A DNA stretch of 33,655 bases from Candidatus Kaiserbacteria bacterium (GCA_011322135.1 DRNP01000005.1:1-33655), one strand, 5' to 3'; shown: positions 363 to 32,265, numbered from the stretch's first letter. Notes: a model not told the origin generated them from the sequence alone. Translations and numbers: made by a program.

Positions 363-427
363 ATTTCGATTAAGCGCGCGCAAGCGCGGAGCTATTAGCT
401 CCGCGCTTGCGCGCGCTTAATCGAAAT
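363..427. repeat. Perfect 32-bp inverted repeat with 1-nt spacer between convergent genes (possible bidirectional terminator or palindromic element)
   Basis: atttcgattaagcgcgcgcaagcgcggagcta-t-tagctccgcgcttgcgcgcgcttaatcgaaat. Confidence 0.95.
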
Positions 428-443
428 ACTCTACACGTTGTTT

Positions 444-1436
444 TCAAACATAGAGTGCGTATGTTTTTTCGCGCATGTTCTCAAGAGAAAATTCGTGTAT
501 GTCCGCGGAGTTAATGATTTCATCAACACCGCCTACGTGGTTTGCAACAATAGGCAGTTTTGCAAGACGCGCCTCAATGAGAACATATGGCAGTCCTTCT
601 TTAAGAGACGGGAGTGCAAACACATCGAAGCCACGCAATACTTTTTGAAAAGGTATAAATCCGAAAAGTTTTACACGATTTTCGAGTTGATATTTTTGGA
701 TAGCTTTCTCCAGATTTTTTCTTTCCTCTCCTTCTCCAACAATTGCGACGTGCATGTTTTTATCAAGTCGTGCTTTTTCGATAAGCTCTATTTGATTTTT
801 ATTATGAGTTAGTTCGCCGATTGTTCCTGTGATACGTGCGTGTGGCGGAAATGCGTTGCGTATTTGTTCACCGGGTTCGAGTTTTGTGGAGAGATTAATT
901 CCGTTGTAAATAAGCCGTATTTTCCGCTTACACAAAGGCAAACGCCTCCCAATATGTTCGTCTCGCGCAGAAACGGTGATAATAATATCTGAAAATAAAG
1001 CAGTTACAAATGAACCGATGAAAGCAAAAGTTCGCCATGCGATTGAGCGTTTTTCTGAAAACGGCCACCCGTGCGCGGTGAATATAATTTTATGAATTTT
1101 TGTCAATCGTGATGCAACAGCTCCGAGGGCACCTGCTTTTGAAGAGTTTAGATGCACAATATCAGGTCGCTCTTTTTTGAAAAAACGTAACAACTCGATG
1201 AAGCTTTGGATATCGCGTGTTATCGACAAGTTTCGGTCGAGTGATTTTATCGTTACTGTTCGTATCCCCGCATCAGATAGTCGTCTTTTTAGTATCCCGT
1301 TTGTGCCGAATGCCACGACAACATCAAAATAATCTCTCGGAAGACCTGTCGCGAGGTCGAATACATACCGTTGAGCTCCACCCCAGTTCGATTTCGTAAT
1401 CACAAACACTATCTTTTTTTTGCGTTCAATGCTCAT
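444..1436 (-). CDS. Glycosyltransferase family 4 (GT-B fold)
   Basis: ITKSNWGGAQRYV N-terminus, HLNSSKAG, FTAHGW, and the LPSLKEGLPYVLIEA EX7E motif. Start reassigned to ATG 1436 (MSIERKK) because the longer ORF overlaps the divergent gene. Confidence 0.9.
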   Translation of the reverse strand: MSIERKKKIVFVITKSNWGGAQRYVFDLATGLPRDYFDVVVAFGTNGILKRRLSDAGIRTVTIKSLDRNLSITRDIQSFIELLRFFKKERPDIVHLNSSKAGALGAVASRLTKIHKIIFTAHGWPFSEKRSIAWRTFAFIGSFVTALFSDIIITVSARDEHIGRRLPLCKRKIRLIYNGINLSTKLEPGEQIRNAFPPHARITGTIGELTHNKNQIELIEKARLDKNMHVAIVGEGEERKNLEKAIQKYQLENRVKLFGFIPFQKVLRGFDVFALPSLKEGLPYVLIEARLAKLPIVANHVGGVDEIINSADIHEFSLENMREKTYALYV

Positions 1437-1491
1437 AATAGTAACTGTACAGCAGGAATGGAAAGTATAAAATAGGTATACGTAATTATTT

Positions 1492-2826
1492 ATGGCATTT
1501 TCTAGACGCGAAACAGGTATATTGCTTGCAGGAGACTTCTTGTTTCTTGTCGGCGCTTTGTGGTTTTCGCTTGTAATACGAAACATTGCATTGCCACAAC
1601 CGGATTATTTTTTAAATAATGCCGTTCCGTTTATTCCGATTTTTTTCTTTTCGCTTGCTGTTTTTTATATAGCGGGTCTCTATGAAAAACCAACGCGCCC
1701 AAACCGGCATGTTATGGGCGAACGCATTATAGGTGCGCAAATTGCAAACACTATCTTAGCGGCGGTTTTCTTTTTCGTGCTACCTCTTTCAATAGCTCCG
1801 AAGACAATTCTCGCATTGTATCTTATCGTCTCGGTAGTGATTATTACTGCGTGGCGTTTTTATGCGTTATCACATTTTGCTCCTCGTGGAAAAATCGCAA
1901 CAGTGCTTGTCGGTACCGGTATCGCTGTGGAAGAAGTTGCGGAAGAGCTTTCAGAAAATGACAGATACACGGTACGCATGATATCAAAGATTGATACGGC
2001 AACTCATTCTTCGAAAGAAATCACCGAGGAGGTTTCAAAATATATTCGATTAGGGGCAGGTATCATAATAATCGATACACTCGACCGAGCTGTTACAGAT
2101 GCATTGCCGGCACTTTATGAAGAAATGCTTACGGGAACAATGTTTATTACATTCGAGGAGTTTTATGAAGAATTATTTGATCGCGTACCTCTTGCGCATG
2201 TTGATTATTCATGGTTGCTGGACTGTTTACCGCGTCAGCATCTTTTGGCGGATGCAACAAAAAGATTTATCGATATTATCGGAGCTCTCGTAGGTGGTGT
2301 TTTGGCGCTCGTGTTCGTAGCTCCGTCAGCAGTGATACTGGCAGTAACTGGTGGGCGACCTTTTATTTTTCATGAACGTATCGGGCGAAACGGAAAGACG
2401 TTTCGCATCATAAAAATGCGCACGATGCTTTTAGATGACCATGGCGATCCGAAACTTCAGGCAAAAAATCGCATAACTCGTATCGGTGGTTTTTTACGCA
2501 AGACCCGCATAGATGAACTGCCACAGCTTTGGAATGTTTTTGTCGGGGAGCTTTCCTTTATAGGACCGAGACCGGAGTTGCCACGCATCGCAACAACATA
2601 CGAAAAAGAAATACCATACTATCATGCAAGGCATCTTATTAAGCCGGGTCTCTCCGGATGGGCACAAATTCGTGACTATGATGCTCCGCGAGGTGGGGCA
2701 GATGTCGAAAAAACACGGCGCAAGCTTTCGTACGATTTGTATTATTTAAAGCATCGTTCTTTTGGACTCGACCTGGCAATTGCATTAAAGACATTGCGCG
2801 CACTAGCTTCATTTTCAGGATCATGA
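1492..2826 (+). CDS. Polyprenyl-phosphate glycosylphosphotransferase (WbaP/WcaJ-like, Bac_transf domain)
   Basis: N-terminal TM helices, then KRFIDI, RIGRNGKTFRIIKMRTM, LRKTRIDELPQLWNV, SFIGPRPE, KPGLSGWAQ, YDLYY. Confidence 0.92.
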   Translation: MAFSRRETGILLAGDFLFLVGALWFSLVIRNIALPQPDYFLNNAVPFIPIFFFSLAVFYIAGLYEKPTRPNRHVMGERIIGAQIANTILAAVFFFVLPLSIAPKTILALYLIVSVVIITAWRFYALSHFAPRGKIATVLVGTGIAVEEVAEELSENDRYTVRMISKIDTATHSSKEITEEVSKYIRLGAGIIIIDTLDRAVTDALPALYEEMLTGTMFITFEEFYEELFDRVPLAHVDYSWLLDCLPRQHLLADATKRFIDIIGALVGGVLALVFVAPSAVILAVTGGRPFIFHERIGRNGKTFRIIKMRTMLLDDHGDPKLQAKNRITRIGGFLRKTRIDELPQLWNVFVGELSFIGPRPELPRIATTYEKEIPYYHARHLIKPGLSGWAQIRDYDAPRGGADVEKTRRKLSYDLYYLKHRSFGLDLAIALKTLRALASFSGS

Positions 2827-3650: not shown

Positions 3651-3676
3651 TTTGAATATATGCATATACTGGCAAC

Positions 3677-5029: not shown

Positions 5030-5031
5030 AT

Positions 5032-5940: not shown

Positions 5941-5952
5941 AAAGAAGAAAAT

Positions 5953-6501: not shown

Positions 6502-6543
6502 ACGTGGAGATAGTCTAACCCGAGAAGTTTTTATAATAAACTT

Positions 6544-7236: not shown

Positions 7237-7538
7237 AATATATAGCAAGGGTGACGGCTTTACATACTATACTCGACACGCGCATTTGCCACAATATTGA
7301 CAGCTAAAATGTGCGTGCCGTTAGTTTTTGTATTCTTTTATTATATATAAAAATACAAAATCATAAATAGGTAGTGGTGTATTGGGAGTATCTTTTTAAT
7401 TAAAATTATCTTATTAAGACAACATGCTTACATTTTATGTAACGGTGAGTGACTTTTTAAATTATCGTGTCGTGTATTTTTAGTGTACTTTCAGTACGAT
7501 TTATACTCCTTGCTATCATAAAAAACGTGATAGAAGTG

Positions 7539-7567
7539 TTGACGTATATAAGAGGTGGGGGTAGTAT
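7539..7567 (+). promoter_or_regulatory. Sigma70 promoter of the 16S rRNA gene
   Basis: TTGACG (7539-7544), 17-nt spacer, TAGTAT (7562-7567), about 120 nt upstream of the 16S. Confidence 0.8.
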
Positions 7568-7658: not shown

Positions 7659-7685
7659 ATGTGTTCTATTGCGTTCCGCCTATTC
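7659..7685 (+). other. 5' arm of the pre-16S processing stem (pairs with 10411-10437)
   Basis: atgtgttctattgcgttccgcctattc is the reverse complement of gaataggcggaacgcaagagaacacat with 1 mismatch in 27. Confidence 0.85.
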
Positions 7686-8144
7686 TTAATGAGAGTTTGA
7701 TCCTAGCTCAGGGTGAACGCTGGCGGCGTGGATAAGGCATGCAAGTCGAACGGCCCTTCGGGGCAGTGGCAGACGAGGTAGTAACATGTAGGTACGCACC
7801 CCATGGTCGGGCATAGCCAGCCGAAAGGTTGGGTAATTCCCGATAGTCCCGCGAGGGTAAAGGTTTTTCGCCATGGGAGCGGCCTGCACAGTATCAGCTA
7901 GTTGGTAGGGTAAAAGCCTACCAAGGCTACGACGCTTAGGGGAGCTGAGAGGCTGACCCCCACCGATGGGACTGAGACACGGCCCATACTCCTACGGGAG
8001 GCCGCAGTCGAGAATCTTCCGCAATGGACGAAAGTCTGACGGAGCGACGCCGCGTGCTGGATGAAGTTCTTCGGGACGTAAACAGCTTTTATGTGGGACG
8101 AAATTTTTGACGGTACCATATGAATAAGGGGCTCCTAACTCTGT

Positions 8145-9265
8145 AAACATAATAACGGTTAGGAATATAAAGGAACTCTGTAAGCGAAAGCTTGCTTCAG
8201 TGGCGCTCGGTCGAAATGAGTACAGACACTCATTTCGACCCTCGCTTCTTGAAGTAATTACCTGGTGCAGCACTCGTGAGCAATTGCGAGTGGGAAAACT
8301 TGGCTATATGTTCCCGAATTGTCTTACATTGAATTTTTATTTGATGTGAGCCAACCGACCATGAGGTCGGTAGGTATACAAATCGGGGAACTCGTTGGAA
8401 GCAGCTTGGTCGAAAGACCAAAACTGCGTTTGACCAATGGGGCTGGAAATCTCTTGTGATCTGCATTGAGACATAAAATATGTTTCAAGCACAAGAGACA
8501 ATCAGCAGGGAAGTCGGGTATACTTAATAAATGGTTGGTAATCTTTCTAAACTGCAACACGATATACTTATCGGTCTTATACTTGGAGATGGATATCTCG
8601 AGTTTAATGGCTATAAGGGGACACGGTTGCAGGTAAAACAATCGGAGGAAAAGAAAGAGTATGTATTTTGGTTATATGATCATTTTGCAAAACTCACACG
8701 AACTCCTCCGCAACAACGGCGCGACACAATGCAGTGGTATTTTGGTACACAATTTTTTACGGATTTTGAGGAAATACGAAAGAATTTCTACGTAAATCGT
8801 ATAAAACATGTACCGGAAAATATTACTGAATTGTTTCAATCGCCACTAACACTTGCTGTATGGTTCATGGATGATGGACGACTTGACTATAGAGTAAAGT
8901 CACATTATGCCTACCATATCAGTACTGATTCTTTCACAGAGTCAGAGGTGCGACAGTTGCAAGTATTGTTACAAGAAAGATTCGGCATAACAGCAAAAAC
9001 TTATTTGTCGTTATGTCGAGGGAAGCGATATCCGAAGCTTTATATTGGAAAAGAAGGACGTGACATGTTTACAAAAACAGTTGCGCCATATATTCTCCCT
9101 TGCTTCAGTTACAAACTTCCACCAAATATGGAAAGTATATCTTGACCCCTCAGAGACTACACGCCGAGCTCCAATTCTAGTGTGAAAATTAGAATTGGAT
9201 GATGATATAGTCCGATCCTCATAGCGATGTGAGGGCATGTCCAAGCGACATGCCACAACAAGATG
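8145..9265 (+). mobile_element. Group I intron (IB-like) at 16S position ~516, with homing endonuclease in L6
   Basis: Removing 8145-9265 restores ctaactctgt|gccagcaggagcggtaa. The 5' exon ends in U and the intron ends in G. IGS ctggtgcag (8262-8270) pairs with exon CUGU (P1) and GCCAG (P10). P3 cttggc/gccgag, Q aatcagcagg (8500), R ctcagagactac (9149), S gatatagtcc (9204); P8 and P9 hairpins present. Confidence 0.95.
8531..9145 (+). CDS. Intron-encoded LAGLIDADG homing endonuclease (two-motif, LAGLIDADG_2-like)
   Basis: ILIGLILGDGYL and LAVWFMDDG motifs, KEYVFWLY, ISTDSFT, PYILPCFSYKL; lies between Q and R of the intron. Confidence 0.93.
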   Translation: MVGNLSKLQHDILIGLILGDGYLEFNGYKGTRLQVKQSEEKKEYVFWLYDHFAKLTRTPPQQRRDTMQWYFGTQFFTDFEEIRKNFYVNRIKHVPENITELFQSPLTLAVWFMDDGRLDYRVKSHYAYHISTDSFTESEVRQLQVLLQERFGITAKTYLSLCRGKRYPKLYIGKEGRDMFTKTVAPYILPCFSYKLPPNMESIS

Positions 9266-9293
9266 GCCAGCAGGAGCGGTAATACAGAGGCCC

Positions 9294-9326
<33 letters not shown>

Positions 9327-10410
9327 TGTCTAGGCGGTCATATTAGTCTTTTGTAAAATCCGGGGGCTCAACCTCCGACCTGCAAGAGAAACGGTATGAC
9401 TAGAGGATATGAGAGGTACAGGGAACTCATGGTGTAGGGGTGAAATCCGTTGATATCATGGGGAACACCAAAGGCGAAGGCACTGTACTGGCATATTCCT
9501 GACGCTCACACACGAAAGCCAGGGTAGCGAAGAGGATTAGATACCCTCGTAGTCCTGGCCCTAAACGCTGCTCGCTCGCTTTACGGAGTATCGACCCTCT
9601 GTGAGGCTAAGCTAACGCGGTAAGCGAGCCGCCTGGGTAGTACGAGCGCAAGCTTAAAACTCAAAGGAATAGACGGGGACTCGCACAAGCGGTGGATCAT
9701 GTGGCTTAATTCGTAGCTAAACGAAGAACCTTACCAAGGCTAGAAACCCAACTGCACGCTTCCCGAAAGGGAAGAATCCTTCGAGGGTGTTGGGCAGGTG
9801 ATGCATGGTCGTCGTCAGTTCGTGGTTTGAACTGTTCCCTTCAGTGGGATAACGAACGCAACCCCCGTTGCCTGTTATATATGTCAGGCGAGACTGCTCC
9901 CTCACGGGAGAGGAAGGTGGGGATGACGCCAGATCAGCATGTCCCTTGATGCCTTGGGCTGCACACGTGATACAATGGTTGGTACAGAAAGATGCAATAC
10001 CGTAAGGTGGAGCAAATCTCGAAAACCAGCCTCAGTACGGATTGAGGTCTGCAACCGACCTCATGAAGATGGAATCGCTAGTAATCGTGGGTCAGCTATA
10101 CCACGGTGAATACGTTCTCGAGTCTTGTACTCACCGCCCGTCAAGTCAAGGGAGCTGGGGGTACCCGAAATTCCACCTTGCGTGGAACTACGGTAAATTC
10201 AGTAACAAGGACTAAGTCGTAACAAGGCACGGCTAGCGGAAGCTGGTCGTGGATCATATCCGAATGGAATTGATGACTTTGAAAAAAGCATCTTGTCGAT
10301 TATGTATCTTCGGATACATAGAGGAATGACACTCACCTCTAAATGGTGTCCGGAAGCCGGAATGCCGTTACCGGTGCTCCTCGGAGTGCTCATATGACAC
10401 TCCGAAGAGC

Positions 10411-10437: not shown

Positions 10438-10439
10438 AC

Positions 10440-10616: not shown

Positions 10617-10641
10617 GTGAGTGAGGTTAAACCTCACTCAC
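10617..10641. repeat. Perfect 12-bp inverted repeat, 1-nt loop, intergenic
   Basis: gtgagtgaggtt-a-aacctcactcac. Confidence 0.9.
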
Positions 10642-10813: not shown

Positions 10814-10887
10814 GCGAGTGTAGCTCAGGTGGTTAGAGCACTCCCCTGATAAGGGAGAGGTCCCAGGTTCGAGTCCTGGCACTCGCA
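10814..10887 (+). tRNA. tRNA-Ile (GAU); CCA not encoded
   Basis: Acceptor gcgagtg/cactcgc, D arm tagctcaggtggttagagca, anticodon arm ctccc-ctGATaa-gggag, T arm ccaggttcgagtcctgg; possible extended -10 TGtTAGTAT at 10795-10803. Confidence 0.97.
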
Positions 10888-10929
10888 CAAAAATAACGAG
10901 CACGATGCGGATGCATCGGGCGAATGTAT

Positions 10930-11737: not shown

Positions 11738-11842
11738 TACAAAGTTTTGTTTGGTGTAGAACCGGTCATTTTTTGTAGGTCTAATTTAAAGATATATAAT
11801 CAGTAATATCAGATATCTGATTTTCTGGTATTCTATATGTAT

Positions 11843-16232: not shown

Positions 16233-16397
16233 CCCAAAGCTATAAGATGTATCTCGCATAGTGCGTCCAAATAATTGAGGAATACATACATAAGTGATGT
16301 GTGAAAATATCAAGTCTCCATATAGCGCAGTGACAATGATGTCTAAAAGTGTTATTTAAATATTTTTTGCACGCCTTTGTGCGTTATAATTAACATA

Positions 16398-20468: not shown

Positions 20469-20471
20469 TAC

Positions 20472-21626: not shown

Positions 21627-22168
21627 ACGGAGCACTTGTAGAGAAAGCAATGTTGATGGCACTTCGCGCACATGAAGGGCAAACGCGAAAAGAATCTTCA
21701 GCGCCATATATTGTGCATCCTGTTCGGGTGGCAATATTGTTGGCACGGTATGGTTTATCGGATACGGTAGTTGCAGCAGGACTCGTGCATGATGTTGTGG
21801 AGGATACGAATGTATCGCTTGATGATGTGCGAAACGAACTCGGTGATGAAGTGGCAGGTATGGTAGCTTCTGTAACACACGACAATGCACTTTCGTGGAT
21901 TGAAAAAAAGAAAGCATATATTGAAACGGTACGCACAGCTAGCGAAGAAGCAAAAGCTATCTCTGTAGCTGACAAGATTGCGAATGCAGAGAGTCTGATT
22001 TCGTCACACGCTCGGGAGGGAAGTGAAGTCTGGCGACATTTCAGTACCGGACGTGAGAAGAAATTATGGTTTGAGGAAGCGGTGCTCGCAATGCTTCAAG
22101 AGTCGTGGCATCATCCGCTCGTTGAAGAATACGCACGTTTTGTGAAGCGACTACAAGGATTGAAATAA
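21623..22168 (+). CDS. HD-domain protein, Mesh1/SpoT-type small alarmone hydrolase family
   Basis: AHEGQTRK...PYIVHP, GLVHDVVEDT, ADKIAN. Confidence 0.85.
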   Translation: MNGALVEKAMLMALRAHEGQTRKESSAPYIVHPVRVAILLARYGLSDTVVAAGLVHDVVEDTNVSLDDVRNELGDEVAGMVASVTHDNALSWIEKKKAYIETVRTASEEAKAISVADKIANAESLISSHAREGSEVWRHFSTGREKKLWFEEAVLAMLQESWHHPLVEEYARFVKRLQGLK

Positions 22169-22304
22169 TCTTGGTTAATTTTATCCGGATTGCAGGCATA
22201 GATACATAGGCGCGGATATTTGCCAAAGTACATAATATGTATTATTATGTTTAATAGGGTAGTTTCGTACATTTTTTAAAACTTGAACAAGGGAGGAACC
22301 TGTT

Positions 22305-22730
22305 ATGTCAGATAAGATAGTAATTCCAACGAAGGATTTCGACAAGTATGGAGTAAGCGTGCATGCCAAAATGATGAAAGGGACTTTTGAAAAACGCTTT
22401 GCACTGCGAAGTAAAGATGGAGCAAGTGTTACGATAACGCAGGCTCAATGTGCAGATTACTGGCAGACGGCTCATTCACACAAGGCAACGAGAGAGTTGT
22501 ATTTTGTGTGGAGCGGAGCACTTATTTACGCCAGTCTCTGTGAAGGTAAAATAGTCCTAAACACTTACAAAGCCGGCGAGTTTTTTTCTTGTGAGCCGGG
22601 TGTTGCTCACACGGTATTTGTTGATTTTGGTACAGTATTTGGTACCACAAAGTTTCAGCTCCCCGGGTTTGAATTTCCGGACTATAAATTGGAGCCGGAA
22701 ATGGACAAACTTCTTCACGACATTGTGTAA
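22305..22730 (+). CDS. Cupin-fold protein
   Basis: AHSHKATRELYFVWSG and GEFFSCEPGVAH cupin motifs; preceded by a GGGAGG Shine-Dalgarno. Confidence 0.75.
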   Translation: MSDKIVIPTKDFDKYGVSVHAKMMKGTFEKRFALRSKDGASVTITQAQCADYWQTAHSHKATRELYFVWSGALIYASLCEGKIVLNTYKAGEFFSCEPGVAHTVFVDFGTVFGTTKFQLPGFEFPDYKLEPEMDKLLHDIV

Positions 22731-22762
22731 AAACAATCAATGCCAATGTCTGTATCTAAAAC

Positions 22763-22794
22763 AAAATTGCGCGACAATAGTTGCGCAATTTTTT
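22763..22794. terminator. Bidirectional intrinsic terminator between convergent genes
   Basis: aaaattgcgcgac-aata-gttgcgcaatttttt. Confidence 0.8.
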
Positions 22795-22795
22795 A

Positions 22796-23908
22796 TTAGT
22801 GGAGTGTTTGCTGGCGCTTTTTTTCATCAGTGCTTCGTAGTGTGTCGCGTGTTTTTTTATATTCTTCAATGATTTCAGTTGGAATGTCTGTATCATTTAA
22901 CACATTTTCTAAGACGTTTATCCAAAATGTAATTCTTGCAATAGCAAGCAAGTGCAAGTTACCGTTTGTTTTTTGCAACCAATTAACATAGTAGCGAACA
23001 AGCTCAGTGAATCTGTAAATACGCATTAGTTTGAGAGACATAAGTTCTTCCGGAGCTCTGTTTAATTTTACGTAAGTAATGAGTGCCTCAGCAAGTGATG
23101 GATTATAAAGCACCATGAAATTGATAAATCTCGCCCATCCTTCATATTTATTTCCAAATCGAAATGAAGCATTGTCTAATATATATAAAGTATCGTCACG
23201 GATGCGAAAGTTTTGCGGTGTGAAGTCCCAATGGGTAAGGAAGTCGCAGTACTGCTCGATAGTTTTTTGATGTGTATTTATAAAATCTAATGCGTTGTCT
23301 AATGTGTTTGTGAAATGCTCCGCATGAGAATCTTTTTGAGAAAGTGCTTGTTTTATTTCGTTAACATATTGCTCTGCAGTATTTAAATACTTTTTTGCAT
23401 TCATTTCTTCAAACGTGCCGTGTATCAATTTGTGGTGTTCGTACGTGGAGGCGTTGATATTTTCCTGCGCTTTAAAAGCATCTAGAGCAACAGAGAATTG
23501 TTTTTTTAAAGGTTGTTTAATAAATGGAATTTCTTGTTCTATGTATTCTGTAATAGCAATAACGCCGTTTTGACTTTTTGTAAACAAAAGTTCTTTTGGC
23601 ATGCGGAAAACATCGTACGCAAATGGTAGGAGAGCGAGAGCGACACGTCGCTCTCGCTCTTGTTCTATTTCATGTATACCGCCCTCGTCGGTGCCTATTT
23701 TTATAATGACTTTTGTTTCTTTTGATTTTCTTTTTCCGAGCAATACAAGCTTACTCCCGCTTTTAATAGGACGCGTTAGAGAGCGCTCGCCGATTATATG
23801 TGGTTGTTCTGTATCAAGCTCATATCCGAGTTTTGCCAATAAAGGAGTAAACTCAGAGATTGTACGAGCGGTGTATTCTTCCCATTTTTTTTGTATATCA
23901 ATTGTCAT
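22796..23908 (-). CDS. Protein kinase-like (APH/choline kinase-type) phosphotransferase
   Basis: VIIKI lysine, ITEYIE hinge, THWDFTPQN (HxDxxxxN), LYILD. ATG 23908 overlaps the stop of the upstream gene. Confidence 0.75.
   Translation of the reverse strand: MTIDIQKKWEEYTARTISEFTPLLAKLGYELDTEQPHIIGERSLTRPIKSGSKLVLLGKRKSKETKVIIKIGTDEGGIHEIEQERERRVALALLPFAYDVFRMPKELLFTKSQNGVIAITEYIEQEIPFIKQPLKKQFSVALDAFKAQENINASTYEHHKLIHGTFEEMNAKKYLNTAEQYVNEIKQALSQKDSHAEHFTNTLDNALDFINTHQKTIEQYCDFLTHWDFTPQNFRIRDDTLYILDNASFRFGNKYEGWARFINFMVLYNPSLAEALITYVKLNRAPEELMSLKLMRIYRFTELVRYYVNWLQKTNGNLHLLAIARITFWINVLENVLNDTDIPTEIIEEYKKTRDTLRSTDEKKRQQTLH
23631..23660. repeat. Perfect 14-bp inverted repeat (2-nt loop) inside the kinase CDS
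   Basis: agagcgagagcgac-ac-gtcgctctcgctct. Confidence 0.92.
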
Positions 23909-24422
23909 ATTCAAGTGTGGTTTCTATTTTCTCCAGATGCTCATTCCATGATGCATTCCACGTATTGATTGCATCGACGGGTTTTGTTTCAAGGGGCAGT
24001 ATTTCCGGCTTTTGTTCAGGTGTGCTTTTTATAACCGCATCTGTACGTATTGTTGCCAGCCAATCTATTATTCCCAAACGAGAAGATGCTTTTTTGTCCG
24101 CGATACAGAATATCGTTTTTTTGTGAAGCGGTGTAAGAATAAGAGGTAATTCCGTTGATATGCCATTTATTACGATGATTGCATCTGTATCGCGTGCAGA
24201 TTGTATCAATGCTTTTCTAAACGCATGTAAGCGTACAAGTCGTGGCTTGTGTTTATCAACCACAGTGACATTTACGTTTTGCAATTGCTCAGGCAAATGT
24301 GTGTATGCCAATACGTTTATTTTATGACCCGCCAATGACAGTCGTCGTGCCAGTTCTTTTGCATACGTAGCAACAGGAGCTATTTCAGGTGGGTAAAGTG
24401 GGGTTGCAAGCACTATGCGCAT
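23898..24422 (-). CDS. Stand-alone GT4 N-terminal-domain protein (no C-terminal nucleotide-sugar-binding domain)
   Basis: MRIVLATPLYPPEIAPVATYAKEL resembles the N-terminus of 25251-26351; only 174 aa; no EX7E motif. Confidence 0.7.
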   Translation of the reverse strand: MRIVLATPLYPPEIAPVATYAKELARRLSLAGHKINVLAYTHLPEQLQNVNVTVVDKHKPRLVRLHAFRKALIQSARDTDAIIVINGISTELPLILTPLHKKTIFCIADKKASSRLGIIDWLATIRTDAVIKSTPEQKPEILPLETKPVDAINTWNASWNEHLEKIETTLEYDN

Positions 24423-24499
24423 GATTGCAATATATCATAAACGTGTTTAATCCTCATGAATAAAAGGGAACTCGAGGGCTTCTGGTGCACAGGGTGACA

Positions 24500-24535
24500 T
24501 TGACACGGTAGATAATGCCATTATAATGGCATTAT
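24500..24535 (+). promoter_or_regulatory. TA operon promoter with overlapping 24-bp perfect palindromic operator
   Basis: TTGACA (24500), 16-nt spacer, TATAAT (24522); palindrome ataatgccatta|taatggcattat at 24512-24535. Confidence 0.82.
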
Positions 24536-24556
24536 AATCACTAAACTAATATACGT

Positions 24557-24808
24557 ATGGCAACAATACAAAAACTCATCAAGGCTGGTAGCTCGGTGGC
24601 TGTGGTAATTCCAAAAAGTTTGCTCGGAAAGCATTCTGCCGGTGCGCCAATTAGTATTGAAAAAGATACTAGTCCAAATACTTTTCGAGTACGAGTGCTA
24701 CCTAAAAAAAAGAACACTCTTTCTGCGCGTGAGAAACACGTTCTTTCATTGACCGATTCGTTTGTTAAACGCTACCGTACCGATCTTAAACGTCTTAAAG
24801 ATGCTTAA
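24557..24808 (+). CDS. AbrB/MazE-like antitoxin
   Basis: QKLIKAGSSVAVVIPKSLL swapped-hairpin motif; C-terminus FVKRYRTDLKRLKD; overlaps the toxin start. Confidence 0.8.
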   Translation: MATIQKLIKAGSSVAVVIPKSLLGKHSAGAPISIEKDTSPNTFRVRVLPKKKNTLSAREKHVLSLTDSFVKRYRTDLKRLKDA

Positions 24809-25241
24809 ATACCTTAGTGAAGACGAGATTGTACTTATTCATCAGCGCATAGTAGATGAAACAGGCGGTTTACAGGGTATTCGCGAACCACATGCGATAC
24901 GAAGTGTTGAGGGGCAACCTCGTCAGGCAGTCTTTGGTAAAGAGCTATATTCAACGATGTATCTCAAGGCAGCTGTGTACGCACATAATATAATCGCACA
25001 CCATCCATTTTTGGATGGGAATAAGCGTACTGGCATCTCTGTGGCTATTGTGTTTCTGGAAGATAACGGACTTATCGCAAAAGCGAAAGAGGGGGATTTC
25101 TTTAATCTTGCACTGCATATAGCAGAAGACAAATGGGAATACGAAGTAATTGCCACATGGCTCAAGGAGCATACGAAGAAAGTGGCGAGTACAAAAAAGA
25201 CTGGCAAAAAGCATTCGCAAAAAAGTGATAAAAAGCGTTAG
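24801..25241 (+). CDS. doc: Doc/Fic-family toxin (death-on-curing)
   Basis: MLKYLSEDEIVLIH, GGLQGIRE, KAAVY, Fic motif HPFLDGNKRTG. Confidence 0.88.
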   Translation: MLKYLSEDEIVLIHQRIVDETGGLQGIREPHAIRSVEGQPRQAVFGKELYSTMYLKAAVYAHNIIAHHPFLDGNKRTGISVAIVFLEDNGLIAKAKEGDFFNLALHIAEDKWEYEVIATWLKEHTKKVASTKKTGKKHSQKSDKKR

Positions 25242-25250
25242 ACTATACGT

Positions 25251-26351
25251 ATGAAGATTGTCATTGCCACGCCACTGTATCCGCCGGAGCTTGGTGGTCC
25301 CGCCACGTACGCGAAGATTCTTTTTGAAGAGCTTCCGAAACGGGGAATTGAAGTAGAGCTTGTGAAGTTTAGCGATGTACGGCATTTGCCGAAAATTGTA
25401 CGACACGTGGCATATTTTTTTCGTGTGAGGCGCGCGCTTGCGCGCGCCGACTTAGTGCTCGCGCTTGATCCTGTTTCTGTTGGGCTACCGGCATGTATTG
25501 CTTCATGGATGCTTAAGAAGCCGTTAGTGGTTAAAATCGTCGGAGATTATGCATGGGAACAAGGACGTCAACGTTTCGGCATTAAAGATACTCTTGATGA
25601 TTTTGCCCACACGAAACGAGCTCCTTTTTTTGTGCGTCTTTTGCGTAGCGTGCAGACGAGAGTAGCTCGTCGTGCGCACACTATTATTGTTCCGGGGGGA
25701 TACTTAAAAAAAACAGTCTCCTCTTGGGGTGTTCCGAAAGAAAAAATTCGTGTTGTACATAATGCAATATCTCTTGAAAAGATAGGGTCTGTACCTAGTC
25801 AGGTCGAGAGACTTCATCGTCCTTTGGTTGTTTGTGCAGGACGTCTTGTCCCGTGGAAAAATATGGATAAAGTTATCGATGCGGTTGCATCCTTGCGTAA
25901 AAAAGGGATAAAAACTTCGCTTGTGGTTGTGGGTGATGGACCGGAGCGTGCGACGCTTGCGTCGCACGCTGAAAAAAAACTGGGAAGCGCATGCGTATTT
26001 ACAGGTGCACAGTCACATGCGGATATGCTTGCAATTTTAAAATACACAGATGTTTTTGTACTTAATTCTTCATATGAAGGGCTTTCGCATATGCTTATAG
26101 AGGCGCAAACGCTCGGAGTACCTACTGTTGCTACGAAAGTTGGTGGAAATACGGAAATTATAACCGATAACGAAAATGGTTTATTGGTGCCTTACGGAGA
26201 CGAAGGTGCTTTGCCATTTGCCATATCGCGCATTCTTTCCGATAAATCGTTGCAGGCGCACATAAGCACATCTGCAAAATATTCGTCATCGCGTTTTTCT
26301 ATAAATGCTATGCTTGACGGCACCATTTCTGTACTCGATGAGTTTAAATAA
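25251..26351 (+). CDS. Glycosyltransferase family 4
   Basis: ATPLYPPELGGPATY, VGDYAWEQ, GRLVPWK, LNSSYEGLSHMLIEA. Confidence 0.92.
   Translation: MKIVIATPLYPPELGGPATYAKILFEELPKRGIEVELVKFSDVRHLPKIVRHVAYFFRVRRALARADLVLALDPVSVGLPACIASWMLKKPLVVKIVGDYAWEQGRQRFGIKDTLDDFAHTKRAPFFVRLLRSVQTRVARRAHTIIVPGGYLKKTVSSWGVPKEKIRVVHNAISLEKIGSVPSQVERLHRPLVVCAGRLVPWKNMDKVIDAVASLRKKGIKTSLVVVGDGPERATLASHAEKKLGSACVFTGAQSHADMLAILKYTDVFVLNSSYEGLSHMLIEAQTLGVPTVATKVGGNTEIITDNENGLLVPYGDEGALPFAISRILSDKSLQAHISTSAKYSSSRFSINAMLDGTISVLDEFK
25945..25970. repeat. Perfect 12-bp inverted repeat (2-nt loop) inside GT4 CDS
   Basis: agcgtgcgacgc-tt-gcgtcgcacgct; a second 9-bp one, ggcgcgcgc-tt-gcgcgcgcc, at 25429-25448. Confidence 0.9.
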
Positions 26352-26357
26352 TTTCAC

Positions 26358-27479
26358 ATGAAAATACTTTTTATATCAAATGATCCGACAATATTTGAAG
26401 AAAACAGTTCTGCGCGTTCTCGTATGCGTTCGTATGCAGAGGCGATAGGAGAATTGCATATCCTCTCGCAAGGAGCAAAGACATCGGACGAACAAGAAGG
26501 AGCACTTTTCTTACACAGTATTCGACCACTGCCAACGAAGCTCGGGAGGGTTTTCTTATTGTGGACTCTTTCAAGACGAGCTCATCGTTTGGTAAAGAAA
26601 TCGGGTATTGAAATTGTGTCTGCACAAGACCCTTTTGAACATGGAGCAATAGCAAAGAGCGCGGTACATCACACGAATGCAAAATTACACGTGCAGGTGC
26701 ACACTGATTTTTGCTCTCGATATTTTTCAGAAGAATCTATAAAAAATCGTTTACGTATGATTATTGCAGATAATGTGTTGCCACACGCAGACGGCATACG
26801 CGCAGTATCAAATCGAGTGAAAAATTCGCTGGTTGCACGATATGGTACGCGTATATCTTTGCCGGTTGTTATTCCGATAGCAATGGAAACAAAAGTTGCA
26901 AACAAATCAGTGGAGCCGTTTAGCATTAGCTCGAAATTTTCTTTTATGATAATGGCCGTCGGTCGTCTTGAAAAAGAAAAACGACTAGAGGACGCAATCC
27001 GTGTCGTTGCAATACTTGCTAAGAAAAAATATCCGGTCGCGCTTGTTATTGTTGGAGATGGAAGCGAAAAAGAAAAGTTGAACTCTCTTGCAAAAAAACT
27101 CGGTATAGAAAAACGCGTTATGTTTTTGGGTTGGCGGAATGATATACACGAGCTTTTGTCACATGCGCAAGCGTTTATCCAAACAAGTGCTTACGAGGGG
27201 TATGGACGAACATACATTGAAGCTGCGCTTGCGGACGTGCCTATGGTTGTAACAAACGTAGGTATCATTGGCGATGTATTTATAAACAAAGAGTCCGCTT
27301 TGGTGTGTGATGTGAGCGATATCAGATGTTTGGAGCGTTCTATGGAAACGCTTATAGAGGAAAACGATACGCGATATAAAATTACATATAATGCGCATAA
27401 TGTGGCGGATGCTCATATTAAAGCCGTCGGTGATACCGTTGCGCGCACAGTTGAGGATTTCGAAAGGTTACTGGCGTAG
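26358..27479 (+). CDS. Glycosyltransferase family 4
   Basis: SAQDPFEHG, QVHTDF, VGRLEKEK, TSAYEGYGRTYIEA. Confidence 0.92.
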   Translation: MKILFISNDPTIFEENSSARSRMRSYAEAIGELHILSQGAKTSDEQEGALFLHSIRPLPTKLGRVFLLWTLSRRAHRLVKKSGIEIVSAQDPFEHGAIAKSAVHHTNAKLHVQVHTDFCSRYFSEESIKNRLRMIIADNVLPHADGIRAVSNRVKNSLVARYGTRISLPVVIPIAMETKVANKSVEPFSISSKFSFMIMAVGRLEKEKRLEDAIRVVAILAKKKYPVALVIVGDGSEKEKLNSLAKKLGIEKRVMFLGWRNDIHELLSHAQAFIQTSAYEGYGRTYIEAALADVPMVVTNVGIIGDVFINKESALVCDVSDIRCLERSMETLIEENDTRYKITYNAHNVADAHIKAVGDTVARTVEDFERLLA

Positions 27480-27504
27480 CAGAAGTTATAGATATTTTTC
27501 AAAA

Positions 27505-28647
27505 ATGACATCTTTACAAAACAAAAATAACGCGAAATTGTTGATAGTTACACAAACCATCGACGAGAATGACCCGGTTTTAGGTTTTTTTGTGCGTTGG
27601 GTTGAAGAGTTTGCAAAGCGTGCAGAGAGCGTGGAGGTCATTTGTCTCAATTTGGGAAAGTCGGACCTTCCCAAAAACGTGCATGTGCACTCGCTTGGTA
27701 AAGAGCGCGTAGCCGGTACGGATAACACAGGAAATATAAAGCAAGCGCAGAGCACAGCGCCGAGCTTCGCTCGGCGCTGTGCTCTGCGCGCCACTTACGC
27801 GATACGCTTCATACACCTGGTATGGAGTTTGCGCAAAAGATACGACGCAGTCTTTGTTCATATGAATCCCGAGTATTTCGTACTCGCCGGGAAACTATGG
27901 CGTTTGATGCGAAAACGCACAGCACTTTGGTACACGCACAAAAGTGTTGATTTAAAATTACGTATAGCGGTGCTTTTTGCAAACATTGTATTTACAGCGT
28001 CACCTGAAAGCTTTCGGCTTAAAAGCAGGAAAGTGCATGTTGTTGGACACGGTATCGACATGGAACTTTTTACAAAAAAAGCAGATGAACATACAAAAGA
28101 TAAAAATTATCCGAAAAAAACATTTCGGATTTTGACGACAGGACGCATATCGAAAACAAAACGAATAGCGGAAATGTTATCTGCGTTAGACGTGCTTTAT
28201 TCTCTGGGAGAAGATTTTATATTTATCGTCGCAGGCACACCGGCAACAAATGAAGACAAACTGTACGAACAAAAATTGCTTCGCTTTGTAAGCGCATCTC
28301 CGTATTCTGAAAGAGTACGTTTCATCGGAGCTGTATCACATAAAGATATTCCGAAAATGTTAAATGAGTGTGACGTATTTATTAATTTGAGCGAAACCGG
28401 AAGTATGGATAAAGCAATACTGGAAGCTCTCGCGGTTTGCGTTCCTGTTGTAACGACAAATGTAGCTTTTCGAGATATTCTCGCCCGCACACAAAATCTT
28501 TTTATCGAGAACGGTACGCCGGAGAAAATAGCGAACACGCTTATTTTTGCGCGCAATGCCGATATCAGTGCAATTTCAAAAGAAATACGACAGCGCTATG
28601 CGTTGCAACACACAATAAAATCAATTATGAAAATACTCACCGCATAG
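27505..28647 (+). CDS. Glycosyltransferase family 4 with in-frame palindromic segment
   Basis: LLIVTQTIDENDPVLGFF, FVHMNPEY, LWYTHK, GHGID, NLSETGSMDKAILEA; start MTSLQ at 27505. Confidence 0.88.
   Translation: MTSLQNKNNAKLLIVTQTIDENDPVLGFFVRWVEEFAKRAESVEVICLNLGKSDLPKNVHVHSLGKERVAGTDNTGNIKQAQSTAPSFARRCALRATYAIRFIHLVWSLRKRYDAVFVHMNPEYFVLAGKLWRLMRKRTALWYTHKSVDLKLRIAVLFANIVFTASPESFRLKSRKVHVVGHGIDMELFTKKADEHTKDKNYPKKTFRILTTGRISKTKRIAEMLSALDVLYSLGEDFIFIVAGTPATNEDKLYEQKLLRFVSASPYSERVRFIGAVSHKDIPKMLNECDVFINLSETGSMDKAILEALAVCVPVVTTNVAFRDILARTQNLFIENGTPEKIANTLIFARNADISAISKEIRQRYALQHTIKSIMKILTA
27745..27789. repeat. Perfect 21-bp inverted repeat (TTC loop), exactly 15 in-frame codons
   Basis: gcgcagagcacagcgccgagc-ttc-gctcggcgctgtgctctgcgc, encoding AQSTAPSFARRCALR. 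Confidence 0.95.
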
Positions 28648-28650
28648 TCT

Positions 28651-30021: not shown

Positions 30022-30186
30022 TCGTATGCAGTACTCTTTAGGTATCCCGAACAACGCCCGTCACTTTAAAATTGCCTTACAATATAAAGTATACTCTTTT
30101 TATCGCAAACTGATTATCGTGCTATAAACTAAAGAAGCGCGTTATCGCGATAGTGTCATGCGCAACTGCATTTAAATTGAGACGAT

Positions 30187-32265
30187 ATGCAAAACTCTAA
30201 AAAACCAAAAATAAAGAGAGTACTTTTCTTTGGTATCTTTGATCCTAAGTATTCACGCTCACGTGTTTTACGTGAGGGTTTTGAGGCGCTTGGATATGAA
30301 GTCGTAACTTGTCAAACAAATCCAAAAGAGAACCCTGGGCTACGTAAATATAATGTACTGTGGAAAAAAGGAAGAGCACTTCGTGCCGAACAATTTGACC
30401 ATGTCTTCGTGCTTTTCCCCGGACACACGGTTGTGTGGCTCGCCCGGATTCTTTTTGGTAACAGAATTATTTTTGATGCGTTTGTGTCGCTTTATGATTC
30501 AAACGTGTGCGACCGTGCGCTTTATACGTCGTTTTCTCCCCGTGCGATAAAAGATCGTTTTTTAGACAGCATATCTTGTACTCTTTCGCATTATGTACTT
30601 GTTGATACAAAAGAGAATAAATCTTATTTTGTAGAAAAAATAGGTGTCAGTGAAAATAAAATAATTGTTGTTCCGGTCGGTGCCGGAACAAAATGGTTTA
30701 CAGCTGGAGAAAATATAGAGTCACTTCATGGAGACCAGCTGATTGTAGGATTTTATGGGTCGTACATTCCGCTACACGGCATATCAACTATTGTCCGTGC
30801 AGCGCACTTGCTTGCAGAGGAGCGAATATTTTTTCGCATTATTGGCGGTGGGCAAGAATACGATAAAGTGAAAGCGCTCGTCAAAAAACTTGGTGGTGTA
30901 CCAAATATAGAGTTTATAAAATCTATGCCACGTGATGAACTAATTAAAAATATACGCGAGATGGATATATGTCTCGGCATTTTTGGGGAAACAGAAAAAG
31001 CATCACGTGTTATTCCAAACAAAGTATACGAGTGTGCAGCATTCGGTAAGCCAATCATCACGGCAGACACGCCGGCAATTCGTGAAGTATTTACGAATAA
31101 AGAAAATATTCTACTTACGGAAGCAGGTTCTGCGAATGAGCTCGCAAAAACAATCCGTGACTGTATCGCGGATTACGGGCGCGCGACGCGTACCGCGTCG
31201 CGCGCCCGTAATCTCATGCTTAAAAGCTATACTCCGGAAAAAATAGTACGCAATTTAGATGAAAAAATTTCTGCAAAAAAAGTGGCGTTTTTGTTTTCAA
31301 AGGCGCGAGGAGACAAGTCGGAGCCGGATACTTCGTTTCGAGGCGCAAACCATATACCGAATGCAGAGATTATTGTTGTTGAGCGCGGTGTGATTAAAAC
31401 GTTAAAGATTATATTTAAGTTAATCAGATATGACGTCGTCGTGGCTTCGGATTATTTTACTATAGGTTACATTGTCACTTTTTTATCGCGTCTCTTGCGC
31501 AAAAAGACATATTGGATTTTCATAGCGATGCATTCATCAACATTAATGCGCAAGCATTCAAAACATACGATACGTATCTATCTTTTAAAGATGTTTTGGA
31601 AAAGTTTCGCACGCATAATTTGTCTTTCGCGCGCGCAATATAAAGATTTTGAAGATTTTGGCGTATCGCCTGAAAAACTGGAATTCATACATTTTGGTAT
31701 TGATAAGGATTTTTACACAAACACAACAGATAAACATAAAAGAGAAAATATCGTAAGCGTGGGGCGTGATAGCGCCCGCGACTATAAAACGTTGTTTAAG
31801 GTTGCCGATAAAATTAAACACAAATTTGTTATTGTTTCCGCTCATAAAAATATTCCGGACAACATACAAATTCCGGAGAATGTATCGTTGAAATATAATT
31901 TGCCGGCGAGCGGTGTTCGTAAAATATACGAAACAGCAAGGATTGCTGTTGTTGCGGTAGAAGATGATAATTTTTTCTATGGTTCCGATTGTTCCGGACA
32001 GACAGTAATTCTGGACGCAATGTCAGCAGGAGTGCCGGTTATTGTAACGAAAAGAGCGTGGATTAGAGATTATTTTATTCCGAATAAAGATATCGTCGTT
32101 GTTTCTTGTGGCGATGCAGAAGTACTCGCAACGGAAATTAAAAAACTTTGGAATTCATCCGACGAGCGTGCTCATATTGCGTCCAGTGCCAAACATAAAG
32201 TTTTAGATATGTATACTACGGAGAAATTTGCGAATAAATTAAATAGCGTAATTACAACATTATGA
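30187..32265 (+). CDS. Tandem double GT4 glycosyltransferase fusion
   Basis: Module 1: YSRSRVL, FYGSYIPLHG, VIPNKVYE. Module 2 from ~KKVAFLF: SVGRDSARDY, SGQTVILDAM. Confidence 0.88.
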   Translation: MQNSKKPKIKRVLFFGIFDPKYSRSRVLREGFEALGYEVVTCQTNPKENPGLRKYNVLWKKGRALRAEQFDHVFVLFPGHTVVWLARILFGNRIIFDAFVSLYDSNVCDRALYTSFSPRAIKDRFLDSISCTLSHYVLVDTKENKSYFVEKIGVSENKIIVVPVGAGTKWFTAGENIESLHGDQLIVGFYGSYIPLHGISTIVRAAHLLAEERIFFRIIGGGQEYDKVKALVKKLGGVPNIEFIKSMPRDELIKNIREMDICLGIFGETEKASRVIPNKVYECAAFGKPIITADTPAIREVFTNKENILLTEAGSANELAKTIRDCIADYGRATRTASRARNLMLKSYTPEKIVRNLDEKISAKKVAFLFSKARGDKSEPDTSFRGANHIPNAEIIVVERGVIKTLKIIFKLIRYDVVVASDYFTIGYIVTFLSRLLRKKTYWIFIAMHSSTLMRKHSKHTIRIYLLKMFWKSFARIICLSRAQYKDFEDFGVSPEKLEFIHFGIDKDFYTNTTDKHKRENIVSVGRDSARDYKTLFKVADKIKHKFVIVSAHKNIPDNIQIPENVSLKYNLPASGVRKIYETARIAVVAVEDDNFFYGSDCSGQTVILDAMSAGVPVIVTKRAWIRDYFIPNKDIVVVSCGDAEVLATEIKKLWNSSDERAHIASSAKHKVLDMYTTEKFANKLNSVITTL
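31171..31213. repeat. Perfect 20-bp inverted repeat (TAC loop) inside the double-GT4 CDS
   Basis: gattacgggcgcgcgacgcg-tac-cgcgtcgcgcgcccgtaatc, encoding DYGRATRTASRARN. Confidence 0.95.

Follow-up and report, generated by a model that had tools for sequence, protein, structure and literature searches.

How does a bacterial gene come to hold a long, perfectly self-complementary, GC-rich palindrome without losing its reading frame, and is such a palindrome a signal or the trace of a mutational process? The question is raised by a stretch of 33,655 nt from Candidatus Kaiserbacteria bacterium (GCA_011322135.1, DRNP01000005.1), hereafter the window, which is the entire contig C5 of a small genome of the Patescibacteria, or candidate phyla radiation (CPR). 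This genome, designated G000, comprises 656,807 nt in 46 contigs with about 42% GC, is 95% complete, and belongs to a genus of at least 166 species, the nearest of which are 64-74% identical to it in DNA sequence across the block of surface-glycan genes. A preliminary description of the window had listed eight perfect inverted repeats and had attributed them either to a mutational process that perfects hairpins in short Arg/Ala-rich patches, perhaps after the loss of repair genes, or to selection for DNA or RNA structure. We recovered every one of the eight where it had been placed. Here we report that such palindromes exceed chance, that their perfection is nearly binary, that they recur at the same seeds, and that arms carry signatures of having been copied from one another. 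The reading that we favour, at a probability of about 0.5, is that a process acting at the level of DNA, namely template switching at quasi-palindromes, creates, lengthens and keeps perfect short GC-rich palindromes in this lineage.

Six of the eight, including one with 9-nt arms, lie inside open reading frames (ORFs), and the frame is kept in all of them. The preliminary description had placed five of the seven long palindromes in unbroken coding sequences, in agreement with the host frames of 366-692 aa that we find, and four of them in the surface-glycan block, where three host genes indeed match the Pfam glycosyltransferase (GT) family GT4, while the fourth, 22796-23914, has no Pfam match and lies among GT genes. 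The palindromes located within genes are the following:

19243-19280, plus strand: 14 perfect pairs, loop of 10; ComEA-like gene 18172-19431, residues 358-370 (APTRLTKVSRVGA)
23631-23660, minus strand: 14-nt arms, loop of 2; gene 22796-23914 (no Pfam family), residues 85-95 (QERERRVALAL)
25429-25448, plus strand: 9-nt arms, loop of 2; GT4 gene 25251-26351, residues 60-66 (RRALARA), at the end of helix 48-63
25945-25970, plus strand: 12-nt arms, loop of 2; the same GT4 gene, residues 232-240 (ERATLASHA), at the start of helix 233-247
27745-27789, plus strand: 21-nt arms, loop TTC; GT gene 27391-28647, residues 119-133 (AQSTAPSFARRCALR), in a loop of variable length
31171-31213, plus strand: 20-nt arms, loop TAC; two-domain GT gene 30187-32265, residues 329-343 (DYGRATRTASRARNL)

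Excess over chance in one lineage

Perfect inverted repeats with arms of at least 10, 12, 14 and 18 nt number 13, 10, 6 and 4 in the window, against means of 0.44, 0.06, 0 and 0 in 50 dinucleotide shuffles and of 0.54, 0.10, 0 and 0 in shuffles of 60-nt blocks; an earlier rough estimate of about 0.01 repeats expected by chance was of the right order of magnitude. In the whole 657-kb genome the corresponding counts are 253, 186, 140 and 88, against block-shuffle means of 7.6, 0.6, 0 and 0. Within genes the protein itself constrains the sequence, and the counts were therefore made in genes of at least 250 aa, trimmed of their first 50 and last 30 codons, and compared with synonymous-codon shuffles that keep both the protein and the codon usage. 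For arms of at least 10, 12 and 14 nt, 22, 12 and 8 in-gene palindromes were observed, against 3.8, 0.2 and 0 in the shuffles, and a second implementation gave 23, 13 and 9 against 3.0, 0 and 0. The preliminary description had named codon-preserving shuffles as the decisive control, and the excess survives them. Against composition- and codon-preserving nulls alike, it grows with arm length, as is expected of template switching.

Five of the 12 in-gene palindromes with arms of at least 12 nt lie on the window contig; outside it, in-gene palindromes were found in genes for a class-V aminotransferase, a class I tRNA synthetase, two methyltransferases and the delta' subunit of Pol III, and a smaller one, with 10-nt arms, in a Mur ligase gene. 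In-gene palindromes thus extend beyond glycan genes, though glycan genes are enriched. Among 81 orthologues of the GT gene 25251-26351 there are 33 palindromes with arms of at least 10 nt, where 3.2 are expected, and 16 with arms of at least 12 nt, where 0.4 are expected.

The stems are either perfect or, much more rarely, nearly so. Mismatches are absent from 125 of the 154 stems with at least 14 pairs; 14 stems have one, six have two and nine have three, whereas in other genomes of the phylum only 4 of 14 such stems are perfect; among in-gene stems of G000 and ten genomes of its genus, 33 are perfect, nine have one mismatch and seven have two. The nominal loop is 0-2 nt in 78 of 186 palindromes, so that the complementarity reaches bases that are unable to pair in a hairpin. 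A related signature is seen in short words: the self-complementary octamers (GC)4 and (CG)4 occur 70 and 62 times in G000, where 15 and 16 are expected (a 4-4.5-fold excess), and CpG has an observed-to-expected ratio of 1.29, a pattern that neither E. coli nor 11 other genomes of the phylum share.

The distribution of palindromes was followed outwards from G000 with 40 kb sampled from each of ten genomes of its genus, and with more distant genomes. In the lines below, the in-gene counts are for arms of at least 12 nt (observed against expected) and the densities are for all arms of at least 14 nt:

G000, 657 kb: 13 against 0 in genes; 21.3 per 100 kb
Ten genomes of the genus, 400 kb: 7 against 0.3 in genes; 8.2 per 100 kb
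Three genomes of the order, 240 kb: 1 against 0.2 in genes; 5.8 per 100 kb
Eleven other genomes of the phylum, 560 kb: 0 against 0.4 in genes; 0.9 per 100 kb
E. coli K-12, 150 kb: 0 against 0.05 in genes; 0.7 per 100 kb

In the same E. coli sample no in-gene palindrome was found even with arms of at least 10 nt, where 0.85 are expected, and the density of arms of at least 14 nt in G000 is about 30 times that of E. coli. The palindrome excess is restricted to the lineage of G000.

One alternative is that the palindromes are artefacts of assembly or amplification, or a chance product of Arg/Ala-rich proteins written with GCG and CGC codons. Motifs such as ARASRAR do yield 9-nt arms by codon choice alone, and there is a slight surplus of palindromes with arms of at least 14 nt close to contig ends (of 140, eight lie within 150 nt, where 2.9 are expected), where they may contribute to assembly breaks. 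Nevertheless, the synonymous-codon shuffles yield 0-0.2 palindromes where 12-13 are observed, and every in-gene palindrome keeps the reading frame. The same palindromes are also present in an independent metagenome contig, L199, which is 89.3% identical to positions 21810-28064 of the window (6.3 kb): across those at 25429 (20 nt), 25945 (26 nt) and 27745 (45 nt) there is not one difference in 91 nt. An assembly artefact is excluded because, of the four in-gene palindromes within the reach of L199, three are present in it letter for letter, and because orthologous sites in many independent metagenome-assembled genomes (MAGs) carry palindromes as well. Chance and codon usage were rejected by the dinucleotide, block and synonymous-codon shuffles, and we give the alternative as a whole practically no credence. 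Among the sequencing runs listed as containing this DNA, two are DNA runs with small shares (0.08 and 0.07) and contigs about 90% alike, and none is an RNA run.

The loss of repair enzymes, proposed earlier as the cause of such a process, was examined gene by gene. SbcD, MutS, MutL and the large subunit of ExoVII were not found in the 95% complete G000, and SbcC gave only a weak match below the cut-off; RecJ and RNase III are present. The absence of SbcD, MutS and MutL thus bears out one part of the proposal, whereas their role as the cause does not stand: repair loss does not explain the excess because palindrome-poor genomes of the phylum lack these genes too. In 81 sampled genomes of the phylum the cut-off was passed by SbcD in 3, by MutS in 16 and by ExoVII in 26; MutS was found in none of 61 genomes of the genus; and among 11 palindrome-poor comparators ExoVII is present in six and was not found in five, without any apparent relation to how many palindromes they have. 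On these grounds, SbcD, MutS and ExoVII being missing from most of the sampled genomes, we rejected the loss of repair genes as the cause; it may at most be permissive.

Palindromes and their orthologous sites

Four of the five long in-gene palindromes of the window lie in Arg/Ala-rich segments written with CGC and GCG codons or in a variable loop, and at these four sites sister species have either no palindrome or a different one. Palindromes recur at seeds, the same sites of a protein carrying different palindromes in different species. The orthologue alignment called for in the preliminary description yielded arm-copy signatures, in which one arm carries clustered changes or an insertion equal to the complement of the other, at 27745 (a 12-nt insertion), at 23631 (the 3' arm) and in the tRNA synthetase. 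The polarity of these changes rests on distant orthologues, with 45-67% identity, at which distance a single event and several steps look alike.

The palindrome 27745-27789 encodes four extra residues that are present in none of 11 orthologues, and the 12 nt that specify them are the reverse complement of the distal part of the left arm. The two closest orthologues read PRFARR and have the same TTC centre with 8-nt arms, perfect in one and mismatched in the other, while in other species the same protein loop carries unrelated palindromes with arms of 20 nt (loop 0), 8 nt and 9 nt. As RNA, the hairpin has a minimum free energy (MFE) of -47.2 kcal/mol. Its host ORF, 27391-28647, shares 89 nt with the preceding ORF, 26358-27479; orthologues align only from about residue 42-49, and its true start is probably some 40 codons further downstream.

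At 31171-31213 (RNA MFE -41.7 kcal/mol) the segment DYGRATRTASRARNL stands in place of DLAQRRLIATAAREL in the nearest orthologue, at equal length, and the same helix carries other palindromes in three orthologues, the arms measuring 12 nt in two species and 9 nt in the third (the comparison used 10 of the 13 orthologue loci, since L030-L032 match the second GT domain). The 692-aa frame in which it lies consists of two GT4 modules, residues 8-361 and 374-688, which are separate genes about 1.2 kb apart in G012 and parts of a single 987-aa frame in G048.

In the GT gene 25251-26351, the codons of the palindrome 25945-25970 form 11-nt and 10-nt palindromes in two orthologues, from which the window differs by paired, amino-acid-changing substitutions (eight of nine loci were compared at the sites of this gene; L022 matches another gene). 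Among the 81 orthologues, palindromes cluster at four hot spots, namely residues 60-66 (three orthologues, with arms of at least 9 nt), 136-145 (ten), 232-241 (eleven) and 335-342 (eight). The eleven that share the helix of 25945-25970 differ in sequence. All four hot spots lie in helices of an AlphaFold2 model (pLDDT 90.8), the mapping having drawn on 27 of 80 orthologue loci.

The palindrome 23631-23660 has no counterpart at the orthologous site in any of 15 orthologues. Its 5' arm resembles their HERECR, and its 3' arm (VALAL) stands in place of their RVLQKI. In L199 six of its 14 pairs are broken by changes at scattered sites, five of them synonymous and one exchanging V and I.

Outside the window, the class I tRNA synthetase gene (contig C27) has a conserved ARASRAR motif with 9-nt arms formed from GCG and CGC codons alone. 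This palindrome has been extended independently in G000, to 15-nt arms, and in G017, to 14-nt arms with different letters, and in both the variable left flank (KD or EA) is the complement of the conserved R-L-L flank. A palindrome is present at the site in 6 of 24 sequences. Among the matches to this gene, the one in G014 (L323, at the end of contig C17) runs into a poly-G tract that is probably a sequencing artefact, and those in G018, G042, G046 and G047 have one in-frame TAG or TAA each.

The palindrome 19243-19280, which alternatively reads as 18-nt arms at 94% with a loop of 2, behaves differently from the other four long ones. It was compared in 15 species, i.e. the window and 14 of 15 orthologues, the one left out being without the segment. 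Its pairing is kept in 92.9% of cells, against 82.3% in shuffles and 38-62% with a slid partner; both sides have changed in 10 of 17 pairs, with 26 double-change cells against 5.9, and none of 500 shuffles reached the observed value. The proteins compared are only 34-45% identical, and the third-codon positions of the hairpin are invariant. This conservation with covariation across the genus suggests that the hairpin probably has a selected function, even though covariation could also come from template switching and is hence no proof of function. The ComEA-like protein has an N-terminal hydrophobic segment, HhH, PKD and lamin-tail-like domains and a C-terminal transmembrane helix; its gene adjoins a TrwB/VirD4-like ATPase gene (16377-18152), and in several relatives, too, it is placed beside the glycan cluster.

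A different origin would be the landing in frame of small mobile palindromic elements, such as Rickettsia palindromic elements (RPEs), repetitive extragenic palindromic sequences (REP/REPIN) or miniature inverted-repeat transposable elements. The segment at 27745-27789 is longer than in its orthologues, as an insertion would make it, and the palindrome 10617-10641, located between genes, belongs to a repeated family with 11 full copies. The in-gene palindromes, on the other hand, share no sequence with one another. Four of the five long ones in the window (25945, 31171, 23631 and 19243) keep the length of the orthologous segment, extra residues being found only at 27745. Their arms of 9-21 nt are far below the length of RPEs, which are about 100-150 bp, and shorter palindromes with the same centre in orthologues point to growth in place. 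A search with PF01797 for Y1 (RAYT/TnpA-REP) transposases was empty in G000 and positive in 6 of 14 control genomes. The view, already expressed in the preliminary description, that this is not a classic REP family is borne out by the differing sequences and by the failure to find a Y1 transposase. Mobile-element origin was rejected for the unique sequences, the missing Y1 transposase and the mostly constant length, and we consider it very improbable.

Palindromes between genes and the gene content of the window

Most palindromes of the genome are not in genes: 176 of the 253 are intergenic or overlap a gene end, according to crude ORF calls. In the window, four palindromes were found beyond those listed earlier (32409-32455, 24512-24535, 8209-8240 and the imperfect 22756-22799), which gives the following set outside protein-coding frames:

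363-427: 32-nt arms, loop of 1; in the 84-nt gap between the convergent FtsW/RodA-like and GT4 genes
8209-8240: 13-nt arms; within the 16S rRNA gene
10617-10641: 12-nt arms, loop of 1, GTGAGTGAGGTT-A-AACCTCACTCAC; in the spacer that separates tRNA-Ile from the 16S rRNA gene
22756-22799: 12-nt arms, one G.T mismatch; between the convergent genes 22305-22730 (plus strand) and 22796-23914 (minus strand)
24512-24535: AT-rich, 12-nt arms, loop of 0; upstream of the Fic/Doc gene 24762-25241
32409-32455: AT-rich, 21-nt arms, loop of 5; 15 nt upstream of the AbiEi antitoxin gene 32470-33114

The palindrome 363-427 (RNA MFE -60.8 kcal/mol) has no clean T-run and was not flagged by a simple terminator scan; from its position we read it as a putative bidirectional terminator-type hairpin. 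That at 22756-22799, a GC-rich hairpin with a U-tract, we likewise read as a probable terminator; in L199 it is represented by a perfect 13-nt version with a different inner stem, i.e. a compensatory difference. The two AT-rich palindromes form a class apart from the GC-rich ones. That at 24512-24535 overlaps a sigma-70-like promoter matching 12 of 12 positions (TTGACA-16-TATAAT; 24500-24538) and has only 7-nt arms in L199, while that at 32409-32455 overlaps an 11-of-12 site (32404-32455); both are likely to be autoregulatory toxin-antitoxin operators.

The earlier remark that the palindromes are mostly not copies of each other holds in general, with the exception of 10617-10641, which belongs to an 11-copy family. 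The family GTGAGTGAGGTT-N-AACCTCACTCAC comprises 11 full palindromes plus solitary half-sites (32 matches to the 12-mer in total), with copies also on contigs C4, C6, C7, C13, C20, C28, C32 and C35. These copies are mostly intergenic, with an A-run ahead and a T-run behind, and two lie about 50 nt or less from contig ends. The family appears to represent repeated use of one stem of terminator or REP type; no RAYT gene was found in the genome.

In the genome as a whole, a palindrome with arms of at least 12 nt is present in 15 of 41 convergent, 52 of 183 tandem and 9 of 47 divergent intergenic regions, a gradient that is expected if most intergenic palindromes are terminators. Many consist of an A-run, a GC-rich stem, a short loop and a T-run, and most look like terminators or operators. 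Of the 63 three-base loops, 21 have the commonest centre, GCGAAGC/GCTTCGC. On the sense strand of tandem regions, 34 loops are TT, TTT or TTC and 12 are AA, AAA or GAA. The in-gene set shows no sign of such tuning at the level of RNA: GAA and TTC loops occur four times each, and the mismatches are G.T in five cases, A.C in four and other in 14. An asymmetry towards G.U wobble pairs is not significant in tandem regions either (17 G.T against 9 A.C), and these numbers, like the 5 against 4 in genes, are small.

The other features of the window include genes of the cell wall and of secretion and an rRNA locus:

3-359, plus strand: FtsW/RodA-like gene, an FtsW fragment, one of the cell-wall and secretion genes, which also comprise those for SecD, SecF, a racemase and three proteins with a Mur-ligase domain
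444-1586, minus strand: GT4 gene
7685-8249 and 9166-10264: 16S rRNA gene, split by an intron of about 916 nt
8531-9145: ORF for a LAGLIDADG homing endonuclease, inside that intron
10814-10888: tRNA-Ile, after the split 16S rRNA gene
11837-13159 and 14039-15346: two of three genes with a Mur-ligase domain, the former with a MurD-like N-terminal domain
16377-18152 and 18172-19431: genes for the TrwB-like ATPase and the ComEA-like protein
GT4 glycosyltransferase block with an epimerase gene; also an amino-acid permease gene
Fic/Doc gene and AbiEi/AbiEii pair

Proposed template switching, possible selected structure and what the palindromes may mean

According to the template-switching reading, a nascent strand with a short self-complementary seed would fold back, or switch to the complementary arm, during replication, copy from a few to about 20 bases of that arm, and then return to its own template. 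The point of rejoining would decide whether an arm is overwritten, with its length kept, or a few bases are inserted, and within genes only in-frame outcomes would survive. Seeds would arise spontaneously where Ala (GCG) and Arg (CGC) codons alternate, because GCG and CGC are reverse complements of each other, and such seeds would account for the presence of in-gene palindromes in variable loops and in helices rich in Arg and Ala, above all those of fast-evolving glycosyltransferases. In intergenic DNA the process would be free of coding constraint, and its hairpins would be used as terminators, some of them bidirectional. We infer that the mechanism is one of replication and that most hairpins within genes are not signals and are by-products that the cell tolerates. 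The hairpin-perfecting process on Arg/Ala-rich patches that was proposed in the preliminary description fits the excess over codon shuffles, the near-binary stems and the copied arms; what has to be given up is repair loss as its cause.

The most serious alternative is that the in-gene hairpins are selected cis-acting signals in mRNA or DNA, whose pairing is kept by compensatory changes. They might serve in RNase III processing, in protection from exonucleases, in translational pausing, in stopping antisense transcripts, or as a cruciform or protein-binding site. RNase III is encoded in G000, and with 20-21 bp a perfect stem has the length that this enzyme needs in a substrate. The terminator scan also found T-rich tails, antisense to the gene, after 27745-27789 and 23631-23660, on which we do not build because T-rich tails are frequent in DNA of 42% GC and no antisense gene ends nearer than about 0.9 kb. 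The intergenic hairpins, furthermore, have the strand-specific loop bias described above. Yet the occupancy of the in-gene sites is a minority one (3-11 of 81 orthologues per GT hot spot, none of 15 at 23631 and 6 of 24 at the synthetase), which makes a conserved function unlikely at the GT and tRNA-synthetase sites. The sites follow Ala/Arg codon seeds in unrelated genes and have no common position in the gene; the in-gene set has neither G.U tolerance nor a loop-orientation bias; selection for stability would require neither perfection into the loop nor near-binary stems; and the palindrome at 23631 has decayed, or has not yet formed, in L199 with the peptide almost unchanged. The idea of selected signals, raised in the preliminary description as an alternative, suits most intergenic palindromes and probably 19243-19280, and fits the GT hot spots and 23631 poorly. 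As an account of the in-gene hairpins we regard it as unlikely, though not nearly as improbable as a mobile origin.

Several observations weigh against template switching, or against a purely mutational reading of it. The hairpin of the ComEA-like gene has been kept throughout the genus (15 of 15 species in the comparison), with covariation and compensatory changes. Three in-gene palindromes are identical in L199 despite a background divergence of 10.9%, at which no difference is seen in as few as 3.6% of windows of 45 nt and 14% of those of 26 nt. The identity in L199 and the conservation in the ComEA-like gene both fit selection on structure at least as well. The bias of loop orientation in tandem regions indicates that selection at the level of RNA does act on the intergenic class. 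All the signatures could also arise from stepwise point mutations under selection for pairing, the template switch itself being deduced from sequence comparison. In-gene hairpins of -42 to -47 kcal/mol should hinder translation, so that a strong drive or some benefit must lie behind their persistence. The load is patchy within the genus, being high in G111 and G017 and low in G003 and G062; in 40 kb, G003 has no palindrome with arms of at least 14 nt and G111 has ten. Finally, no lineage-specific loss or gain of an enzyme was found that would set the genus apart from other Patescibacteria without SbcCD, MutS or ExoVII, in a search that did not include ExoI, RecQ and other helicases. Origin by switching and later capture of some hairpins can be combined, so that both readings can hold together.

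Among known systems, the closest analogue is found in the mitochondria of hairworms (Nematomorpha), where, according to the portion of the report available to us (PMC6649704), perfect inverted repeats of up to 284 bp lie in intact genes with both arms translated. Their identity is described there as "binary", with almost no imperfect copies, and repeats appear and disappear from one species to the next; conversion of one arm by the other, perhaps through template switching, is proposed by the authors, who question whether the repeats have an essential function and are left with the same uncertainty between two readings as we are (PMC6649704). The palindromes studied here share the perfect translated arms in intact genes, the scarcity of imperfect copies and the gains and losses between species. 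They differ in residing on a free bacterial chromosome, in having arms of 9-21 nt within genes and of up to 34 nt between genes, in being GC-rich within a 42% GC genome, and in occupying mostly variable or helical surface-type segments with Ala/Arg-codon seeds, whereas the nematomorph repeats, as far as that portion goes, cover conserved residues.

In E. coli and its relatives, Lavi et al. (2018; PMC5941160) describe, in the part of their paper at hand, an over-representation of perfect inverted repeats that increases with arm length, and repeats that are conserved or corrected, imperfect arms being turned into perfect ones by template switching. Their analysis there concerns non-coding regions, with coding repeats set aside, in contrast to the in-gene excess reported here. 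The process that we propose works in the same way as theirs. Monttinen and Loytynoja (10.1101/2021.04.15.439925), in the section available, likewise credit template switching with perfect inverted repeats and compensatory changes in stems. The accessible part of a survey of inverted repeats with arms of at least 10 nt and spacers of at most 8 (PMC13155455) gives a bacterial mean density of 3.14 per kb with a general intergenic concentration, and places Ca. Campbellbacteria (12.0) and Ca. Kaiserbacteria (9.7) as the top phyla; with the same parameters G000 has 12.9 inverted-repeat bp per kb. That part of the survey reports densities, and in-frame palindromes, recurrence at orthologous codons and the mechanism in these phyla are not among its subjects. 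In the literature searched, supplements aside, there was no report of in-frame perfect palindromes in CPR genes.

Other known palindromes resemble those of G000 less closely. RPEs are in-frame selfish insertions, copies of a mobile family that lose their repeat identity over time. Both they and the present palindromes are palindromic DNA within intact genes of a reduced bacterial genome, tolerated in surface segments; the latter are unlike RPEs in being unique in sequence, mostly length-preserving, still perfect and much shorter. The features expected of RPEs were not found here, there being no insertion relative to orthologues except at 27745 and no sequence-related family in genes, nor were those of REP/REPIN elements, since 363-427 and those within genes are each unique in sequence, six of the eight originally listed are intragenic and no RAYT was found. 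Unlike terminators, the five long in-gene hairpins are not at gene ends and have no U-tract on the sense strand, and perfect arms of 20-34 nt exceed what termination needs.

A bolder form of our reading, which we put forward tentatively and hold to be somewhat less probable than the process itself, is a genus-specific "palindrome drive", in which arm copying would write and maintain perfect hairpins (to -47 kcal/mol) in working genes, rewriting peptides and shaping the evolution of proteins. The coding palindromes of hairworm mitochondria would thereby gain their first counterpart in bacteria, here ultra-small ones, and at least one such hairpin, that of the ComEA-like gene, would since have been captured as a conserved cis-element.

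The lineage offers a concrete bacterial system, with many genomes and many independent sites, in which the creation and maintenance of stems by template switching can be studied. Changes of several bases within an arm violate the independence that is assumed in alignment, phylogeny and dN/dS, and very stable hairpins may add to the breaks between contigs in MAGs of these organisms. If template switching is indeed at work, it would possibly explain why these candidate phyla have the top density of perfect inverted repeats, and covariation in a coding hairpin would be no proof of RNA function in this lineage. Above all, it would mean that a mutational process, and not selection on proteins, sets short Arg/Ala-rich segments in many proteins of these bacteria.

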